Shown here in pieces: positions 3,039 through 37,002 of a DNA stretch of 43,859 nt. The first letter of the stretch is position 1, and the number at the start of each line of letters is the position of its first letter. Position numbers and translations under genes: made by a program. The stretch comes from a virus (taxonomy: Duplodnaviria; Heunggongvirae; Uroviricota; Caudoviricetes). A model generated the notes under the pieces. It was not told where the DNA came from. It did not search any database and worked only from the letters and a program-made list of their open reading frames with translations. Location: IMG/VR virus record IMGVR_UViG_2908567220_000006, positions 1-43,859 of that record; one strand, written 5' to 3'.

Positions 3039-3938
3039 TTACTTCATTCTGAAGACGCGTTGTGTCGTTGTTGTTTTGAATTTTTCGAATAACTCAGGGT
3101 GTACTGACTGGAATAGCTTCTGGTCGAATCTGTTGCTGATCTGAGATTTCCATGTGCAGAGCGGCTTTCCGTCCAGGGTCAGGACTGAGTGCTCTTGCAT
3201 GTACATCTTCAGCTTCTCTTCTGATATAGCTATTTCTTCTTCCAGTGATTTTCTGCGTGACTTCATGTCTCGTAGATCGTTGAATAGTGCGAGTGCCTTT
3301 CCGTCAGCCTCGATACTTGTCCCGGCATCTTTCTCAAACATCAGCGATATATCGCTTACGCTGGTAGCTTCCGGCGGGTTAAGATTTTTCACTCGGTCCC
3401 AGAAAGCGATTTCTTTTTCTAAGATTGCCTGGATAGTTTCTTCATCACGCTCAACCCGATAGATTCGGAAGTCGTCGCCACCGATAAGCACACCGAAAAC
3501 GCATACCTGTTTGTTTGTAACCATCAACCCGTGCATGGCCTGGGCCGTGTAATGCACAGGAATTGCATCTGTCTGGATTTCTCCCCATTCTTTGGCTTTG
3601 AACGGACTAACTGTTTTGATCTCAATGTTCTCGCCTGACGCTGCTTCTGCATCGATCTCAGCTGCAATAAAATCGTAATCACGGTGGATATAGCGGTTTC
3701 CGCGATGAACGATTTCCATCCCTGTTTCCTCAGAAAGCAGGTCTATTACGTATGGCTCCATACGCTGGCCACGCGTGAAAACTTTCTGCTTGCTTGGGTC
3801 TACTGGTTTGACACGTGGCTGTACCTTATCCAGATAAACCTCAAGCGGTGTGCGCCATGGGCTAATTCCAAGAATCCCTGCAACATCGCTTCCTCCGATG
3901 TATTTTGTTCTATCCATGATTCCAGCGTTCCGCATCAT
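3039..3938 (-). CDS. YqaJ-type viral recombinase exonuclease
   Basis: 299 aa; N-terminal motif KYIGGSDVAGILGISPWRTPLEVY typical of YqaJ/lambda-Exo-like nucleases; paired with RecT. Confidence 0.8.
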   Translation of the reverse strand: MMRNAGIMDRTKYIGGSDVAGILGISPWRTPLEVYLDKVQPRVKPVDPSKQKVFTRGQRMEPYVIDLLSEETGMEIVHRGNRYIHRDYDFIAAEIDAEAASGENIEIKTVSPFKAKEWGEIQTDAIPVHYTAQAMHGLMVTNKQVCVFGVLIGGDDFRIYRVERDEETIQAILEKEIAFWDRVKNLNPPEATSVSDISLMFEKDAGTSIEADGKALALFNDLRDMKSRRKSLEEEIAISEEKLKMYMQEHSVLTLDGKPLCTWKSQISNRFDQKLFQSVHPELFEKFKTTTTQRVFRMK

Positions 3939-4234
3939 GCCGCGTCCCTCTGTCCATCAAGCTGATCAGCCAGATCCCAGCGGGCGATAATTGCCATTGC
4001 CTCGCGCCGGTAGGAATCCATCAGTTCTTCGAACTCTGGACTGTCTTTAGCGGCCTCCAGTACTTCCTGGCGAACGCCTTTACCTGTTACAGCGTCGAAA
4101 GTTGAGGCTAGTTGATGAAGCCGGATGCTCTCGATCAGTTCAACTTGTCGGTCATATAGCTGTTCTGACAGGCGGTAGTCCTTGTCGAATGCCAGCATGA
4201 TTTTTTGAAGATTTTTCTGCTGATTAACGTTCAT
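3935..4234 (-). CDS. hypothetical early protein
   Basis: Start taken at MNVNQQ, which has a GGGAGGG Shine-Dalgarno 5 nt upstream; overlaps the exonuclease start. Confidence 0.5.
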   Translation of the reverse strand: MNVNQQKNLQKIMLAFDKDYRLSEQLYDRQVELIESIRLHQLASTFDAVTGKGVRQEVLEAAKDSPEFEELMDSYRREAMAIIARWDLADQLDGQRDAA

Positions 4235-4236
4235 TA

Positions 4237-4389
4237 TCAGCCCTCCCATATCTCGTTATCGTTGGCTACATCGCGAGCTTCTTTGCTGACGAAAGCCCAC
4301 TTAATGCCTTCCTGTAAGGTGCGGAACTTCCAGCTCATGAATCCGCATGCAGTAACGCAGCACCAACCGTTGATGATTTTCCACTGCAT
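4237..4389 (-). CDS. small Cys/Trp-rich hypothetical protein (50 aa)
   Basis: Own translation: MQWKIINGWCCVTACGFMSWKF...; first gene downstream of the putative leftward early promoter, the position occupied by kil/cIII-like genes in lambdoid phages. Below the ORF-track size cutoff. Confidence 0.3.
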   Translation of the reverse strand: MQWKIINGWCCVTACGFMSWKFRTLQEGIKWAFVSKEARDVANDNEIWEG

Positions 4390-4408
4390 AATTTGTTACC
4401 TCGGCTTG

Positions 4409-4485
4409 TTACCGTTGAGGTAATGATTATGCGTATTTGGTTTGGTGTCAATAGATATGAGTTAAAAAAATTACCCTTTAGGTAA
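4409..4485. promoter_or_regulatory. oL-like operator pair (TTACC-N5-GGTAA at 4409-4423 and 4471-4485) with leftward early promoter
   Basis: Two perfect copies of the 15-bp palindrome between the repressor gene 3' end and the first early-left gene. Confidence 0.55.
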
Positions 4486-4493
4486 TCAAACAG

Positions 4494-4520
4494 GCAATAA
4501 AAAAGCCGCCAGAAGGCGGC
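4494..4520 (-). terminator. intrinsic terminator downstream of repressor gene
   Basis: GCCGCC-AGAA-GGCGGC hairpin followed on the minus strand by a T-run, about 25 bp after the repressor stop. Confidence 0.5.
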
Positions 4521-4542
4521 TTACTTACTGAAAAATATGATT

Positions 4543-5127
4543 TTATTGTTTGTTTTTTTCGTTCTGGTTGATGACAAATTCAATGTAACTTTCGATCTTT
4601 GCTTTCTCGGTTTCGGGTAACAATGCGTAGCGCGAGCGGTCATAGTTGATGGTCGCAGGGTCGTGCGGGTGAATCAGTAATTCATAGCCGTGACGCCCGA
4701 ATGCGGATGCAACATTCTCCAGGGTGGAAATGGAAACGCTGACCTCATTGTTTAACAGGCGGCTGATTGTCACCTGGGAGACGCCAGATGCGCGGTGAAG
4801 TTTTCCCTGTGTTGAAAGGTCGCGGCTTTCGCTCATCCAGCGTTCCAGGTTGTGAGCCGCCAGTTGACCAATGTCGCTTGGTCCGACAGGCTGAAAACCT
4901 TCCTGAGAAAGCGAGCGATCGATATCAAGCCAGTTACGGGGTTTATTGGCGGCAGCTTCGATTTTTCGCGCAACCTGGTCGCCGATAACCTTCTTGCCAA
5001 GAGCCCAGCGGTTTACCAGATTTGCCTGAGTTCCAAGTTTTTCTGCCATCCGCGTCTGAACACCATTGAATTCACGGTCGATCAAGTCGTTGAGATTTTG
5101 CCTGCGGACGTCCTGGATACTTTTCAT
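4543..5127 (-). CDS. CI-like phage repressor with two tandem XRE-type HTH domains
   Basis: 194 aa; two HTH-like segments (GVQTRMAEKLGTQANLVNRW and LHRASGVSQVTISRLLNNE); divergent from a Cro-like gene; no S24 peptidase motif is apparent. Confidence 0.7.
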   Translation of the reverse strand: MKSIQDVRRQNLNDLIDREFNGVQTRMAEKLGTQANLVNRWALGKKVIGDQVARKIEAAANKPRNWLDIDRSLSQEGFQPVGPSDIGQLAAHNLERWMSESRDLSTQGKLHRASGVSQVTISRLLNNEVSVSISTLENVASAFGRHGYELLIHPHDPATINYDRSRYALLPETEKAKIESYIEFVINQNEKNKQ

Positions 5128-5182: not shown

Positions 5183-5245
5183 TTACCCAACAGGTAAATG
5201 CACCTCATGGGTAACTATCCTTGATTTTTGTTACCTTATAGGTGA
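5183..5245. promoter_or_regulatory. oR-like operator cluster with divergent pRM-like and pR-like promoters
   Basis: Three palindrome copies in the 154-bp repressor-cro intergenic region: 5183-5197 perfect, 5200-5214 GCACC..GGTAA, 5231-5245 TTACC..GGTGA. Candidate pR: -35 TTGATT 5221-5226, -10 GAATAT 5244-5249. Confidence 0.6.
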
Positions 5246-12181: not shown

Positions 12182-12214
12182 TTACCACAACGGTAACTAT
12201 TACCACGGTGGTTA
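12182..12214. promoter_or_regulatory. palindrome pair immediately upstream of small terminase start
   Basis: 12182-12196 perfect TTACCacaacGGTAA; 12200-12214 TTACCacggtGGTTA overlapping the SD. Confidence 0.5.
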
Positions 12215-14927: not shown

Positions 14928-15004
14928 TGGCGTGGCATGCAGGATTCGAACCTGCGACCAACCGCTTAGAAGGCGGTTGCTCTGTCCAGCTGAGCTAATG
15001 CCAC
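14928..15004 (-). tRNA. tRNA-Arg (anticodon UCU)
   Basis: Manual fold of the reverse complement: 7-bp acceptor stem GTGGCAT/ATGCCAC, D-arm GCTCAGCTGGACAGAGC, anticodon stem ACCGC/GCGGT with loop CTTCTAA, T-arm GCAGGTTCGAATCCTGC, discriminator G plus CCA. Acceptor stem differs from my recollection of host argU. Confidence 0.9.
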
Positions 15005-31911: not shown

Positions 31912-32424
31912 CTATGCAGGCTTTTTGGATTTGTACGAATAATCCCACGGATAAACATTTCTACTAAGTGGAGCTGTATTCGTTCGTTCATGAAATAATT
32001 TTGTGAAATTCAATACGGAATCCATCCAAACTTTTGCGTTAGCTTTGGTGTGTGCGGGCGGGTCCCAATAAGCTAGTAAGGCTGCATCTCTTATTTCATT
32101 GACTGCATATATGAGATATGCGTTACTGGTTGGTTTTGGCCTGTAATTTCCTTGTTCATCAATCAATCCATATGACCACTCATCCCAACACTGTTCAGTA
32201 CATGAGTATGAATATGATGCATATTCACCAATATTGACATGAACCTTTCTGAGATGGAAGCCTAATACTTCCTCTGGTCTTTCAAAAAGAGTATCTTTTC
32301 CCAGATCAGGATGATGACCATGACGCCAGTGTTGTTTAAAAGCATCTTTTAGCGAAATCAGAAAGTCATCAGTTTTAAACTCACCAGTAGGTATAACCTT
32401 CCCGCTATACTCACTCAAAAACAT
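31912..32424 (-). CDS. hypothetical protein B (170 aa), downstream gene of a two-gene accessory operon
   Basis: Start overlaps the upstream gene by 14 nt; AT-rich; motif region HWRHGHHPDLGKDTLF...GFHLRKVHVNI; no confident family assignment. Confidence 0.55.
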   Translation of the reverse strand: MFLSEYSGKVIPTGEFKTDDFLISLKDAFKQHWRHGHHPDLGKDTLFERPEEVLGFHLRKVHVNIGEYASYSYSCTEQCWDEWSYGLIDEQGNYRPKPTSNAYLIYAVNEIRDAALLAYWDPPAHTKANAKVWMDSVLNFTKLFHERTNTAPLSRNVYPWDYSYKSKKPA

Positions 32425-32737
32425 CGAATTCCTCTTCCTTCATATGCGTTTCTAATGAGTTAAGCTGGCGGAAAGATATCTCTTTTGATTCTGCAGATGA
32501 GAGTTTTTTTATCCGCTTTATATTCTTTGTGATAGGAATAGACATTGTATGCACATCAGCGGATGCTCTTGGCTTTGTGCTGATAAAAATATGGCGCAAT
32601 GCCGCATTTTCACTATTGAACGAGCCAATAGCTGATTTACGTGCTACAACCTTACCAGTAAAAATACGACTCTTGCTACGCTTTGCATGAGTTCCGCTTC
32701 TTACCGGACCTCTCATCACGAATCCAAGTTTTGTCAT
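32411..32737 (-). CDS. hypothetical protein A (108 aa), upstream gene of a two-gene accessory operon
   Basis: GGAG SD 7 nt before the ATG; basic N-terminus; candidate promoter (-35 TTGCAG, -10 TACTAT) abutting the palindrome at 32780-32794. Confidence 0.5.
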   Translation of the reverse strand: MTKLGFVMRGPVRSGTHAKRSKSRIFTGKVVARKSAIGSFNSENAALRHIFISTKPRASADVHTMSIPITKNIKRIKKLSSAESKEISFRQLNSLETHMKEEEFDVFE

Positions 32738-32779: not shown

Positions 32780-32794
32780 TTACCTTTAAGGTAA
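32780..32794. promoter_or_regulatory. palindrome copy at promoter of two-gene accessory operon
   Basis: Perfect TTACCtttaaGGTAA 43 bp upstream of the 108-aa gene start. Confidence 0.5.
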
Positions 32795-32867: not shown

Positions 32868-33560
32868 TCAGAAGAACCCTGCCTTGTCGTTGATGTACTC
32901 CGCGTGGGTCTGGATATCACGCAGGCATTTGCTCACACCGACGATGTAGCAGAACATGGTGGTCAGTTCCGCCGCCGCGCCCGATACATCGTGCCCGTCT
33001 TCCTGTAACTGGTTCAGCAGATTCATCAGCAGTGAGTTCTCCGTCAGGCCGAGAACACCAGACGGCGAGTGAATCAGGCTACGGTAGCCGGGCTTCAGCG
33101 GGGCGCTGTAGGTTTTGTTCTCTATCTTCATCGCCTGCATTACTGCTGACGCCGTGGCGTTGGCTACCTGGTCGGCAACCATCTTTATGCGTTCTTCCTG
33201 CGGGAGCGAGTTTTTAATGTAACTTCCGGTGCGGCGGATCTGAGGAAGAACCTCACCTGTAACCCATTCAAGAAATCTGAATGCTCTCGTTCCCTCAGTC
33301 ATTGCCTCTTTGCAACGCAGAATAAGGATGTAGAGACCTGATTCTGAAACGATGGATAGTTCTTGTATTCCACCAGGGGTCTGTATTGAATACAGCCCCT
33401 TTTTGTTCCAGCCTTTTTTATCAAGTTTTCTCGCTTGTGTAACATCAATATTCAAAGCATTGCACACATCTTTGGTGACAAACCAAGGTTCTCCGTCAAT
33501 CATGAACATACGGATCTGGCAGGATGACTCAAAGGAAAAGATGGAAGGTTTGGTATTCAT
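32868..33560 (-). CDS. antirepressor (Bro-N domain with C-terminal Ant/KilA-C-like domain)
   Basis: Start at MNTKPSIFSFESSCQIRMFMIDGEPWFVTKDVC (Bro-N signature) with AAAGGTGA SD. Confidence 0.7.
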   Translation of the reverse strand: MNTKPSIFSFESSCQIRMFMIDGEPWFVTKDVCNALNIDVTQARKLDKKGWNKKGLYSIQTPGGIQELSIVSESGLYILILRCKEAMTEGTRAFRFLEWVTGEVLPQIRRTGSYIKNSLPQEERIKMVADQVANATASAVMQAMKIENKTYSAPLKPGYRSLIHSPSGVLGLTENSLLMNLLNQLQEDGHDVSGAAAELTTMFCYIVGVSKCLRDIQTHAEYINDKAGFF

Positions 33561-33827
33561 GGCGATCACCTTTGTAGTTAGGTTAATCACCACCGCTGAG
33601 ACCAATCAGATGGTGGTGAACTGTGCAGAGTTGGTCTTACCGGCTACAAAGGAACCCGGCGCACCTTTCGGTGCCCCCACACAGCCCACCATAGAATAGG
33701 TGCGCTTTACACATAAAAAAACCGCTTATGCGGCATATGTGCCTCTGTAGTAATCCGGGAGACCAATCCCGGCACTGGATTTTGCCAGTGCCCGATTACT
33801 ATGGCACAAGAGGAGTGCGATGTAAAT

Positions 33828-33842
33828 TTACCGCAAAGGTAA
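33828..33842. promoter_or_regulatory. palindrome copy upstream of Bro-N antirepressor
   Basis: Perfect TTACCgcaaaGGTAA. Confidence 0.45.
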
Positions 33843-33873
33843 ATATAAGCACTCCATTTGGTAATTGCAAACC

Positions 33874-34131
33874 TTATCTGGTTTGTTTTCGTAATTGTTC
33901 GGCACAATAGTCGAGATGTGTTTGCAGATCCTGCATAGACATCTGTGAGCTGGTGACGTAGTTAATCAGTGCAGTCAGTTCGGCAAGTGGGCCATCGACA
34001 TTAAATCCATCCTTATCGAGATCCCGGAGTAATTTCATCAAGTGCGATCCCTCCACCAGTGACCTGACGCCTCCCGGCGTGTGAATCCTTTCGGTAAATC
34101 CGTCTTCCAGTGGATAGTGATACTGCTGCAT
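33874..34131 (-). CDS. small antirepressor-domain protein, paralog of the Ant C-terminal domain; putative SOS-inducible antirepressor
   Basis: Start at MQQYHYPL with GGAG SD; SHLMKLLRDLDKDGFNVDGPLAELTALINYV...DLQTHLDY aligns by eye with the Bro-N antirepressor C-terminus; a LexA box overlaps its promoter. Confidence 0.55.
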   Translation of the reverse strand: MQQYHYPLEDGFTERIHTPGGVRSLVEGSHLMKLLRDLDKDGFNVDGPLAELTALINYVTSSQMSMQDLQTHLDYCAEQLRKQTR

Positions 34132-34152
34132 CTTATCTTCTCCATGCAATAA

Positions 34153-34168
34153 CTGTATATTTATACAG
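34153..34168. promoter_or_regulatory. LexA (SOS) box
   Basis: CTGTATATTTATACAG: perfect CTGT-N8-ACAG with AT-only spacer, one base from CTGTATATATATACAG; 22 bp upstream of the small antirepressor-domain gene. Confidence 0.7.
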
Positions 34169-34207
34169 TATCAAATAATTTGTTTGCTATCCAGCACGTT
34201 TTGCCAA

Positions 34208-34222
34208 TCACCTGAAAGGTAA
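34208..34222. promoter_or_regulatory. near-perfect palindrome copy (TCACC-N5-GGTAA) in divergent region before tailspike
   Basis: One mismatch; lies between the LexA box and the tailspike promoter region. Confidence 0.4.
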
Positions 34223-34326: not shown

Positions 34327-37002
34327 ATGACGGTCTCAACCGAAGTTGACCACAACGAATACACTGGCAATGGTGTTACGACGACATTCCCTTACAAATT
34401 TAGGATCTTCAAAAAATCAGATCTGGTAGTACAGGTTGTTGACATTAACGAGAATATAAACGTACTGGTTCTTGATACAGATTACATCGTCACCGGAGCA
34501 GGAGGGTACAGCGGCGGTAATGTAATTCTCTCGAAGGCGTTGGCTAACGGTCATCAGATATCTATATCACGAGAACTACCAGCTACTCAGGAAACGGATT
34601 TACGTAATCAGGGTAAGTTCTTCGCTGAGGTACATGAGGATGCGTTCGACAAGTTGACCATGCTTATCCAGCAGTGCTTCAGCTTTCTACGCCTGTCCCT
34701 GCGCAAGCCCTCTTTCATCGCGAACTATTACGATGCGCTCAACAACCGCATTCGTAACCTGCGTGACCCGTCACAGGCGCAGGACGCAGCCACGAAGAAT
34801 TATGTTGATGGGCAGATCGTTGACAATACCAATGCCTGGAAAGCTGGTGATGACATTCTTGATCAGAAAATTGATAGCAATTTCCGAAGAACAATTCGGG
34901 TTCCTGAAAGTGATGTTGATATGGTTCCTACTATAGCTGCAAGAAAAAACTCGCTATTTGGGTGGAACAGCTCCAGTCAACCTGTCCCGATATTTTCTAT
35001 GACGGAAACTGCTGACCTGGCTATTAAGCTAGCAAGCACTGAGATGGGATTGGGTGGCAACCTTGTTGGTATTTACGATGGACGACCGCCAGTTGTTGTT
35101 ACCAATACAGTAACAGATAAAATCAAGGATGGTGCAGCCGGCCTGCGTAAGGATTTCGGAGCTGTAGGTGACGGATACCACGACGATACCGCCGCTTTTA
35201 ATGACTGGTGGGAATGCCTCATGGACCTTCTCTATAAGCGCCGGGGTGTTGAGAGCGACGAAACTGCAGTGCCGTTTATGCTTCAGAAAGGGCCCAGACT
35301 TCATATCGAAAACGGCACATTTATTTATAACGGTCCCGGACTAAATATCACTGATACTGACGCATTTGTTTTTATCGCCGATGGTGAGAGTTCGCTCGCT
35401 ACAAAAATTTTGCTTCCGGATGGTGTTTACTTATTCGATTTTGATAAAAACCCGGTTCATGCGCACCTTGCCAATCTGACCATTCATGGTGGGCTTGGTG
35501 CAGTGCGTTATAAATCTAAACAGCGTTCAACTAACAGCATTCATCTTTTTGAAAATCTACGACTGTCTCGATATAAAGAATGCGGTATTAGTAATAATGC
35601 TATCGATATGCCGTATTTTCGTGTCAGTGGCTCAATGTTTTACGGGGACCCGACAAAACAAACCGTTGGTGTTTGCGTTTCAGGATATGCCGCCGGTGGT
35701 TTTATTCGTGATTCCGTTTTCAGTGATAACCGATACGGCATTAAGTTGGCTGTAGGGAAAAACAGCGTCGAGAGCAACGGCCCTGCAACTCCATACCTTA
35801 TTCAGTGCAATGATTTTTACCGTACTGGTAATCGCGGAGGCTCTGCATCATACGACATCTGGATTGAGCCGGGGGTAACCAGCAATAATGCCGGTCGCGG
35901 TATAAAACTGAGTCAAAACAAGTTCGGACAGGAGAACTTAAAATCTCCGGATACGCATATTTTGATTGCTGATGCCGCTGTATCCGGTAGTGGCTTAGGG
36001 CTAAATGGCGACAGGGCTCACGTTGAAACGCAGTCGGCAGGTTTTGTTTCTGGGGTGAGGTTTGACGGCAATGATGTTAACTCAAACAGCGCCGGGTATA
36101 TTGCGCCGTTTATCCGGACATTTACACCTAACGTGGGGAATTTCAGGTTTTCTGATTTGTACGACAACGATATGCCATCACGCATCATTGAGTTTGCAGG
36201 TGGTATTACTCAGTCACAAATAGGGAACCTGGGGCGTACAAATGTGTTTGACGCGTCTATGTGCCTGGCATTGCAGAAAGGTGTTGAACCTAAGCTGCTA
36301 TCCAACATGAATGACGTCTTCCGCCTGATTGATCCTCTGAATTATTACGTGGGGCACCCGCAGTCAACACTGGTTCCTGTTGGGGGCCAGCAGGATGATT
36401 TTGAATTACTTTACTCCGGTCCTACGTCTACTATCGGACTTAGTAACGCCAGCCGGTCATCGCTCAATAATTCATATGGGGGAATATTTGAAGCAGCTGA
36501 AATCACAATGAATACAGACGAAGGTCGCGCAGTTGCGTCTATAAGTGGTGGGCTGGCGGGGCGTAAACACTGGATTGATTTTGATATTCGTCGAGGCTCT
36601 TCAAATCCCGTAGGCTCTGTTGTGATGGAGGTCATGGACCCTACAGGGGTAACCATTCTGTTTCGTAGAATAATCCTGGTTGATACCATTACTCGATGGC
36701 AAAAAGTCGTTCTCCCGTACATTCCTAATGTAAACGGAGATATTATCGTCCGGTTCCGCTCAAATGTTTATGTGGCTGGATCAGCTACGAATTTTGTTAT
36801 TGGCAACCTCAATGTTTACCGAAACGAAACGCCAGTGAATACGGGGCATAATAGCGGTCTGCGTATGCAGTGGGATCTGCAACACGCAGTGAAAGGCGCA
36901 CGACATGAATGGTATGATAATGCAGGTAATCTGAGAGCTAAAAATGGTGCGCCGACGTCTGCCACCGATGGCGTAATTATCAGTGCAAACCCGGTAGTGT
37001 GA
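34327..37002 (+). CDS. tailspike protein (N-terminal particle-binding domain plus beta-helix-like enzymatic domain)
   Basis: 891 aa; N-terminus MTVSTEVDHNEYTGNGVTTTFPYKFRIF typical of podovirus tailspike/fibre adaptor domains; long Gly/Asn/Ser-rich beta-rich body. Confidence 0.75.
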   Translation: MTVSTEVDHNEYTGNGVTTTFPYKFRIFKKSDLVVQVVDINENINVLVLDTDYIVTGAGGYSGGNVILSKALANGHQISISRELPATQETDLRNQGKFFAEVHEDAFDKLTMLIQQCFSFLRLSLRKPSFIANYYDALNNRIRNLRDPSQAQDAATKNYVDGQIVDNTNAWKAGDDILDQKIDSNFRRTIRVPESDVDMVPTIAARKNSLFGWNSSSQPVPIFSMTETADLAIKLASTEMGLGGNLVGIYDGRPPVVVTNTVTDKIKDGAAGLRKDFGAVGDGYHDDTAAFNDWWECLMDLLYKRRGVESDETAVPFMLQKGPRLHIENGTFIYNGPGLNITDTDAFVFIADGESSLATKILLPDGVYLFDFDKNPVHAHLANLTIHGGLGAVRYKSKQRSTNSIHLFENLRLSRYKECGISNNAIDMPYFRVSGSMFYGDPTKQTVGVCVSGYAAGGFIRDSVFSDNRYGIKLAVGKNSVESNGPATPYLIQCNDFYRTGNRGGSASYDIWIEPGVTSNNAGRGIKLSQNKFGQENLKSPDTHILIADAAVSGSGLGLNGDRAHVETQSAGFVSGVRFDGNDVNSNSAGYIAPFIRTFTPNVGNFRFSDLYDNDMPSRIIEFAGGITQSQIGNLGRTNVFDASMCLALQKGVEPKLLSNMNDVFRLIDPLNYYVGHPQSTLVPVGGQQDDFELLYSGPTSTIGLSNASRSSLNNSYGGIFEAAEITMNTDEGRAVASISGGLAGRKHWIDFDIRRGSSNPVGSVVMEVMDPTGVTILFRRIILVDTITRWQKVVLPYIPNVNGDIIVRFRSNVYVAGSATNFVIGNLNVYRNETPVNTGHNSGLRMQWDLQHAVKGARHEWYDNAGNLRAKNGAPTSATDGVIISANPVV

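Follow-up and report, generated by a model that had tools for sequence, protein, structure and literature searches.

Two lines of work on temperate phages bear on the locus described here, a pair of adjacent antirepressor genes at positions 32,868 to 34,222 of a 43,859-nucleotide (nt) stretch of caudovirus DNA (IMG/VR record IMGVR_UViG_2908567220_000006; the whole stretch is referred to as the window). The Rep-Ant antirepression system of Salmonella phage SPC32H was reportedly described by Kim & Ryu (2013, J Virol 87:11775) and Kim et al. (2016, PNAS), with structures 5D50 and 5D4Z, and the abstract of Kim & Ryu is said to call SPC32H Ant structurally distinct from the LexA-controlled antirepressors Tum, AntC, and GfoA/GfhA. 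The immI operon of phages P1 and P7 (c4-icd-ant) reportedly goes back to Citron & Schuster (1990). In the window, a small antirepressor gene behind a LexA box, ant, is followed by isrK and C4 RNA genes and then by the gene for a larger protein in which a Bro-N domain is fused to an Ant-like domain. We consider it likely that this arrangement is a two-tier module, in which the SOS response drives Ant and an RNA-immunity gate drives the Bro-N::Ant-domain protein. The first tier is supported by orthology and the RNA part of the second by sequence and covariation; its protein part we infer. Since the work on SPC32H, a small antirepressor under SOS control that disables a non-cleavable repressor has been textbook knowledge for this phage group, and LexA-controlled and RNA-controlled antirepressors within one phage have a precedent in Gifsy-1 (GfoA and AnrP), with N15 as a further example. 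The parts are thus known, and it is their combination that appears undescribed: two units side by side, and a Rep-binding domain duplicated onto a Bro-N scaffold behind an RNA switch.

According to later papers that summarize the SPC32H work, cleavage of LexA leads to synthesis of Ant, which disables the repressor through protein-protein contact (PMC7380047), the Ant tetramer splits the Rep tetramer (PMC9638917), and the C-terminal tetramerization domain of Rep is also its Ant-binding domain (PMC9986798). Small proteins encoded behind a LexA box outside the immunity region likewise inactivate non-cleavable repressors in 186 (Tum), N15 (AntC), and the Gifsy prophages (GfoA/GfhA) (PMC3121763), although their fold and family differ from those of Ant. 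In Gifsy-1, the promoter PisrK drives isrK-orf45(STnc1160)-anrP; isrK has a leaky terminator and is followed by a processed RNA, and translation of the antirepressor is blocked until IsrK relieves the block in trans (PMC4825925). The separate, LexA-controlled GfoA gives Gifsy-1 two antirepressors with different inputs (PMC3121763).

The 1.6 kb around the module in the window is 92-98% identical to the Escherichia coli podoviruses EC.W1-9, TL-2011b, vB_EcoP_ZX5 (ZX5), and phiV10, relatives that belong to the genus Uetakevirus (epsilon15 group), and we read the window as a prophage of this phiV10/epsilon15-like kind. The module sits in the slot that ant occupies in SPC32H, flanked by the tail genes and by the tailspike gene (plus strand, start at 34327); the module genes all lie on the minus strand. 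The first tier comprises the following:

33874-34131, minus strand: ant, 85 amino acids (aa), ATG at 34131 and Shine-Dalgarno sequence GGAG at 34143-34140; an SPC32H-type antirepressor by homology
34151-34170: LexA (SOS) box, core CTGT-N8-ACAG = CTGTATATTTATACAG at 34153-34168, 21 nt upstream of the ant ATG
4543-5127, minus strand: rep, encoding a 194-aa non-cleavable repressor, the proposed target of Ant

The small protein has a single match among PDB sequences, chain E of 5D50, an 86-aa chain named "Anti-repressor protein." The alignment (E=4.1e-47) pairs residues 2-84 of the small protein with 3-85 of the chain and covers 83 of the 85. The small protein is 88% identical to SPC32H Ant (tblastn) and matches PHROG 450 (9e-48); NCBIfam returned no match for either this protein or the Bro-N protein. 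By these comparisons it is an ortholog of SPC32H Ant and a member of that family, which is to say an antirepressor type already characterized and not a new one. Rep matches chain A of 5D50 ("Repressor") over its full length (E=4.3e-42) and 5D4Z (Rep 92-198) with E=4.4e-20. Pfam assigns it HTH_3, HTH_26, and YdaS-like domains only and no Peptidase_S24, in keeping with SPC32H Rep, which has two helix-turn-helix (HTH)-type domains and a C-terminal tetramerization and Ant-binding domain but no autocleavage domain.

The LexA box agrees with the consensus TACTGTATATATATACAGTA at 18 of 20 positions and is the sole site in the window with three or fewer mismatches (0 in 100 shuffles). The core motif CTGT-N8-ACAG occurs four times in the window (0.55 expected), and only the copy at 34153-34168 has an all-A/T spacer. 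Alignment of the two upstream regions shows it to be orthologous to the SPC32H box, at the same position, and it is kept in phiV10, TL-2011b, HEMP4, ZX5, Tyrion, and SPC32H. Across the ant region, SPC32H and SPC32N differ by a single C>A substitution, which falls inside the LexA box, CTGTATGTTTATA[C>A]AG; SPC32N is reportedly a constitutively inducing variant of SPC32H. Because Ant, Rep, and the LexA box all have orthologous or homologous counterparts in SPC32H, the wiring from LexA through Ant to Rep is well supported in the window by orthology, and for this phage group it has already been published. SPC32H itself carries ant alone at this locus, with neither isrK nor C4 nor a Bro-N gene.

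Two Klebsiella phages with the module (loci L005 and L006) depart from this picture in the first tier. Their LexA boxes are degenerate, and their small Ant carries DGHDVSGAAAE, a motif otherwise typical of the Bro-N C-terminal paralog, where the E. coli and Salmonella Ants have DGFNVDGPLAE. Gene conversion between the paralogs may account for this, or a functional constraint common to both.

The larger antirepressor gene of the second tier is organized as follows:

32868-33560, minus strand: Bro-N::Ant-domain antirepressor, 230 aa, ATG at 33560
33243-33515 (aa 16-106): Bro-N domain PF02498, 51.4 bits against a cut-off of 25.6
32886-33116 (aa 149-225): Ant-like C-terminal domain, preceded by a helical linker

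Residues 149-222 align with the small Ant over 74 aa, ungapped, at 42% identity (E=7e-20); the C-terminal domain alone matches chain E of 5D50 (E=9e-14), and both proteins match PHROG 450. Four small Ants and seven Ant-like domains share 19 invariant residues (Y151, P154, H164, P166, G168, L172, S176, M179, L181, L182, D188, G189, V192, G194, A197, E198, Y205, T218, and H219). The ~35 phage records with Ant-family homologs are essentially those that also hold homologs of the Rep C-terminal domain. The initial annotation of this DNA had named a near-consensus LexA box upstream of an 85-aa gene, a repressor without an apparent autocleavage domain, induction wired from LexA through the small protein to that repressor, a full Bro-N antirepressor next door, and a small protein paralogous to the C-terminal domain of that neighbor; the comparisons above bear out each of these points.

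A functional clue comes from ZX5, 95% identical over the region, which carries a Bro-N::Ant-domain protein in the same module but with a different Bro-N variant and a different C4/isrK specificity type. Its ORF4 shows 81% identity to the window protein over the whole length, with no differences across the C-terminal 130 aa (from about residue 100 on). Overexpression of ORF4 cut lysogens from 1e9 to 1e6, and the authors named it an anti-repressor (Li et al. 2022, PMC9782041), without reporting the small Ant, its LexA box, the RNAs, or the paralogous domains. Given the ORF4 phenotype, the Ant-domain homology, the 19 invariant residues, and the co-occurrence of Ant and Rep homologs, we take the Bro-N::Ant protein to be a functional antirepressor that would use its Ant-like domain against Rep. 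Full-length fusions, annotated only as "BRO-like," are conserved in Escherichia, Salmonella, Klebsiella, Citrobacter, Enterobacter, and others; this distribution was obtained with the full-length query, and the isolated C-terminal domain as query, within the word-index limit of the search, recovered at least 17 short proteins. The module is present in 542 of 5426 complete E. coli genomes (~10%).

The 313-nt gap between ant and the Bro-N gene holds two full-length minus-strand RNA genes recognized by Rfam, which the initial annotation had overlooked. In the order of transcription, the cassette reads:

33798-33826, minus strand: PisrK, a sigma-70 promoter with -35 TTTACA (33826-33821), a 17-nt spacer, and TG-extended -10 CATAGT (33803-33798)
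33715-33791, minus strand: isrK-family small RNA, the counterpart of a1/b1 in C4 systems (Rfam RF01394, 74.7 bits, gathering score 50)
33767-33759, minus strand: b1, AUUGGUCUC, in the loop of the second isrK hairpin; identical in sequence to b2
33750-33742, minus strand: a1, CUACAGAGG, within isrK
33734-33721, minus strand: 5-bp stem of the isrK intrinsic terminator, followed by U7
33609-33696, minus strand: C4 antisense RNA (Rfam RF01695, 78.6 bits, gathering score 45, model positions 1-87)
33652-33644, minus strand: C4 loop a', CCUUUGUAG
33636-33631, minus strand: C4 loop b', GACCAA
33561-33608, minus strand: leader of the Bro-N gene, bearing the C4 targets b2 and a2
33606-33598, minus strand: b2, AUUGGUCUC
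33577-33569, minus strand: a2, CUACAAAGG, overlapping the Shine-Dalgarno sequence AAGGUG (33572-33567), 7 nt before the Bro-N ATG

The promoter scan places the transcript start near 33791, and PisrK is conserved across seven aligned loci. The c4-a1b1 family RF03163 overlaps isrK with 39.9 bits, under its gathering score of 46.7, and the 3' end of C4, an RNA that in P1 immI-type systems is released from the operon transcript by RNase P, carries a tail, ...CACCACCA. Loop a' is fully complementary to a2 and pairs with a1 if one G-U is allowed, and b' pairs with both b2 and b1, giving cognate helices of 9 bp (a) and 7 bp (b) in the window. An alignment of the cassettes of seven phages with those of VT2-Sakai and APSE-7 extends this pattern. 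In the eight cassettes in which helices were scored, representing at least five specificity types, cognate helices measure 7-9 bp and non-cognate ones 3-6 bp; VT2-Sakai, judged by inspection, adds a further type. The three a elements (a1, a', a2) and the three b elements (b1, b', b2) change in concert from cassette to cassette, a three-way covariation with a types CUACAAAGG, CUAAAAGG, CUAAGUGG, CUAACAAGG, and GAAACC and b types UUGGUC, UUGGCG, and UUGAGAC. Since a2 overlaps the Shine-Dalgarno sequence and the three partners covary, there is strong comparative evidence that C4 would occlude the ribosome-binding site of the antirepressor with specificity of the P1/P7 kind. As read from the sequence, the dominant and demonstrable gate on the Bro-N gene is an RNA switch of the P1 immI and Gifsy-1 IsrK type.

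The cassette has a distribution of its own. In the window and in every one of the six related loci with the large antirepressor, isrK and C4 exceed their gathering scores, and SPC32H has neither; by itself, the RNA cassette turns up in 237 phage records, including Shiga toxin (Stx) phages, SfV, and APSE. The antirepressors behind the isrK-C4 cassettes of VT2-Sakai and APSE-7, considered as possible homologs of the Bro-N protein, show no similarity to it, so that the RNA module alone is shared.

Compared with ZX5 and HEMP4 (loci L011 and L007), the window shows ~100% identity across 34330-33771 (ant with its promoter) and 33244-32885 (linker and Ant-like domain), but 30-80% identity, with a sharp boundary, over the intervening 33770-33245, which holds the a1/b1 part of isrK, C4, the leader, and the Bro-N domain. 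Because this divergent block lies between near-identical flanks, we suggest that the Bro-N domain has been swapped together with the RNA specificity determinants as one block, the pattern expected of an immunity-specificity cassette. The gap between ant and isrK is also an insertion hotspot, with a ~1.1-kb insert in TL-2011b (3780-4868 of locus L003) and an apparent HicB/HicA-like pair at 3346-3800 in the Klebsiella ST512 phage (L005).

The RNA part of the locus can be laid alongside its two described relatives. P1/P7 immI has the same order of promoter, a1/b1, C4 with its a' and b' loops, a2/b2 over the ribosome-binding site, and antirepressor, and its specificity types are likewise distinguished by compensatory changes. 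In contrast to immI, the window lacks an icd-like open reading frame (ORF): the Bro-N ATG follows C4 after only 48 nt, and a2 covers the Shine-Dalgarno sequence of the antirepressor itself. In addition, a1/b1 ends in an intrinsic terminator and would yield a discrete IsrK-type small RNA; the antirepressor is a fusion of Bro-N with an SPC32H-type Ant domain, unrelated to P1 Ant; and the phage is a small podovirus. As in Gifsy-1, isrK has its own promoter and an intrinsic terminator upstream of the antirepressor, with read-through predicted. Unlike in the window, where the two antirepressor loci are adjacent, those of Gifsy-1 lie ~3 kb apart, and the window has no clear orf45 equivalent. AnrP is likened to VT2-Sakai Ant (record annotation, STM2616), whereas the window protein has no similarity to Sakai Ant. 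We also considered whether Gifsy-1 has the same shared-domain design, but GfoA and AnrP show no similarity; because these two share no domain, the paralogous pair would be specific to the phage group of the window. With no icd, no clear orf45 equivalent, and a different antirepressor protein, the second tier carries the RNA hallmarks of both P1 immI and Gifsy-1 IsrK but is, on its sequence, a strict member of neither.

Within the cassette, a 28-codon ORF (33692-33606, minus strand) starts at a conserved AUG in the 5' stem of C4, overlaps C4, and ends at b2, 45 nt before the Bro-N ATG. Its position is that of Gifsy-1 orf45 and of a 38-aa ZX5 coding sequence annotated as an "ash family protein," but its length is not kept between loci, and it is therefore doubtful that it is coding.

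The control of PisrK itself leads to a palindrome that recurs through the genome. The copies nearest to the module and to rep are as follows:

33828-33842, between ant and the Bro-N gene: palindrome TTACCGCAAAGGTAA, ending one base before the -35 of PisrK
34208-34222, in the divergent region between ant and the tailspike gene: TCACC-N5-GGTAA (one mismatch), 40 bp upstream of the LexA box and facing the tailspike gene
5183-5197 (exact) and 5231-5245 (one mismatch): palindromes in the intergenic region between rep and a divergent cro-like gene

The window contains 10 exact copies of TTACC-N5-GGTAA against 0.06 expected. The copy at 5231-5245 overlaps a TTGTTA-17-TATTAT promoter, the one at 33828-33842 is kept in all seven aligned cassettes, and SPC32H and Tyrion have a perfect copy at the position equivalent to 34208-34222. 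SPC32H shares the palindrome set, with three copies in the rep-cro gap, three downstream of rep, and others preceding the terminase, head, tailspike, lysis, integrase, and replication units. Since copies lie between rep and cro in both phages and the N-terminal recognition region of Rep is conserved between them, TTACC-N5-GGTAA is most likely the Rep operator, scattered over the genome in the manner of P1. The palindromes precede most transcription units and are often paired, several at exactly 62 bp from center to center (4409/4471 and 7515/7577; 35972/36034 in SPC32H), with another pair at 12182/12200. By analogy with C1 in P1, such paired and scattered sites fit a single tetrameric, loop-forming Rep that would silence many promoters.

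At PisrK, control by Rep through the adjoining palindrome is plausible, and P1 offers a parallel in Op51, an operator-like site for its repressor at the immI promoter. The initial annotation had the large antirepressor preceded by this palindrome and gated through it by the repressor, which captures part of the arrangement: the copy at 33828-33842 is present and abuts the -35 of PisrK, but it lies 268 nt upstream of the Bro-N ATG, with isrK and C4 in between and the C4 loops pairing with the ribosome-binding site. The same palindrome was considered as a terminator for ant and set aside; the hairpin has a folding energy of -21.6 kcal/mol but z = -1.6 and no proper U-tract.

We propose that the two tiers would operate as follows. 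In the lysogen, host LexA bound at 34151-34170 would silence ant. DNA damage would remove LexA and allow the 85-aa Ant to be made, which, as in SPC32H, would bind the C-terminal domain of the non-cleavable Rep, convert the tetramer to dimers, and release Rep from its operators. PisrK (33826-33798), abutted by the probable Rep operator, would transcribe isrK, C4, and the Bro-N::Ant gene in that order, the latter two by way of a leaky isrK terminator. The a' and b' loops of C4 would anneal to the leader targets a2 and b2 and, because a2 lies over the Shine-Dalgarno sequence, block translation of the large antirepressor; following P1/P7 immI logic, C4 from a resident prophage could act in cis or in trans. 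Because IsrK bears the same target sequences, it would titrate C4, and by analogy we suppose that it may activate translation in Gifsy-1 in this way too. The block might be overcome by loss of Rep with a burst from PisrK, by an excess of IsrK, or by an infecting phage with mismatched a/b specificity. Bro-N::Ant would then be made and attack Rep through its Ant-like C-terminal domain. One repressor-targeting domain would in this way serve two inputs, SOS induction and an RNA gate for reinforced induction or superinfection anti-immunity.

A tentative extension, which we regard as possible but doubtful, would integrate the two tiers into one circuit. The terminator scan and hairpin test found no canonical terminator between ant and isrK, and because no clear terminator separates them, SOS transcription from the ant promoter could enter isrK and mostly end at the isrK terminator. 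The resulting a1/b1 "sponge," once in excess over C4, would unlock Bro-N::Ant, and the swappable block would set RNA-immunity types. If so, DNA damage would fire a fast small Ant and then a self-reinforcing, RNA-licensed second Ant with the same Rep-binding domain; the block of isrK, C4, leader, and Bro-N domain would determine which related phages break each other's lysogeny; and Bro-N antirepressors in general would carry their repressor-specific warhead in the C-terminal domain.

Several observations weigh against the two-tier reading. The C-terminal domain of Rep (window 4543-4863) is only ~40% identical between the window and SPC32H, yet Ant is 88% identical, and the Ant-Rep interface therefore cannot be assumed to be the same as in SPC32H; this asymmetry may reflect a small conserved interface or broad cross-reactivity. 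The promoter scan found no acceptable -35/-10 pair for ant near the LexA box, and the manual candidates are weak. At PisrK, the palindrome covers about -51 to -37, upstream of the -35 and off the core promoter, which makes repression from this site uncertain. In the AlphaFold2 monomer of the Bro-N protein, the per-residue confidence (pLDDT) is 70-84 for the Bro-N part but below 50 for the C-terminal domain, which makes the model of this domain unreliable. phiV10 p23 has a frameshift in the Ant-like domain, giving a 194-aa product that ends in unrelated residues and is followed by a small annotated ORF (p22); because the phage's own copy is frameshifted, the large antirepressor is, by this evidence, dispensable for phiV10 viability. 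The ZX5 overexpression used a glutathione S-transferase (GST) fusion, and interaction with Rep lay outside that experiment (PMC9782041). LexA binding, Rep on the palindrome, C4 processing, and binding of Bro-N::Ant to Rep are all steps that we infer.

Some of these points lend themselves to other explanations. The Bro-N::Ant protein might miss its own Rep, with the Ant-like domain serving only to tetramerize or to hit heteroimmune repressors and the Bro-N domain providing the real activity, for example DNA binding. It is the Bro-N domain that is variable and swapped with the cassette, antirepressors against non-cognate repressors are documented (PMC3121763), and the far greater conservation of Ant than of the Rep C-terminal domain hints at a broad or different specificity. 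We nevertheless find this unlikely, given that homologs of the Ant domain and of the Rep C-terminal domain co-occur in the same phage records, that ORF4 shifts the lysis-lysogeny balance of ZX5 itself, and that 19 residues are invariant between the paralogs. The frameshift in phiV10 p23, together with the insertions between ant and the cassette in TL-2011b and the Klebsiella phages, could instead mark the Bro-N cassette as a decaying moron with no current role. To this we give almost no weight: the intact protein is conserved in hundreds of enterobacterial sequence clusters as well as in the complete E. coli genomes counted above, the complementarity of RNA and target is held by compensatory change, and in ZX5 there is a functional phenotype.

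As to how the large antirepressor is gated, transcriptional control by the repressor on the palindrome might suffice, with the intervening sequence a plain leader devoid of an RNA role. The palindrome stands upstream of the cassette in all loci, the same motif occurs in the rep-cro region, and FsoA of Fels-1 offers an earlier case of an antirepressor under repressor control (PMC3121763). However, a passive leader would not be expected to hold full-length isrK and C4 genes above their gathering scores or to show three-way covariation, and the homologous Gifsy-1 transcript is made but stays untranslated until IsrK acts, which leaves this explanation improbable. The initial annotation had further allowed that the small Ant might be an anti-antirepressor or modulator that forms heteromers with the C-terminal domain of the Bro-N protein instead of acting on Rep. 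One oligomerizing domain is common to both proteins, and as SPC32H Ant is a homotetramer (PMC9638917), mixed tetramers are conceivable. Yet the small protein is ~88% identical to an Ant crystallized with Rep, and in SPC32H, where Ant suffices for induction, there is no Bro-N gene to modulate; we hold this role to be very improbable.

On the two-tier reading, E. coli, Enterobacter, and Klebsiella relatives would carry a Rep-binding domain that has been duplicated, fused to Bro-N, and placed behind a C4/IsrK switch directly downstream of the SOS-controlled gene, a natural example of a single effector domain under two input logics. It would give a testable role to the C-terminal domain of a large "BRO-like" class annotated without function. 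It also joins two literatures that name one RNA cassette differently, as P1 c4 with its a1/b1 targets and as Salmonella IsrK/STnc1160. The module is widespread in Enterobacteriaceae, and its natural C4 specificity types with near-isogenic flanks are suited to work on RNA-based immunity and prophage cross-talk in E. coli.

The cargo downstream of the Bro-N gene differs among relatives. In the window, 31912-32737 (minus strand) holds two overlapping ORFs, of 108 aa (PHROG 5933) and 170 aa (PHROG 1651), preceded by a TTACC-N5-GGTAA palindrome at 32780-32794. The 170-aa product has a weak Pfam match to YafO_toxin, and its RefSeq homologs are named "type II toxin-antitoxin system YafO family toxin." TL-2011b has a YafO-like pair at this place, and HEMP4 and the Klebsiella phages have unrelated ORFs. 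Elsewhere in the window, a tRNA gene at 14931-15004 (minus strand; RF00005, 71.7 bits) occupies the same relative position as the tRNA-Arg gene of SPC32H.

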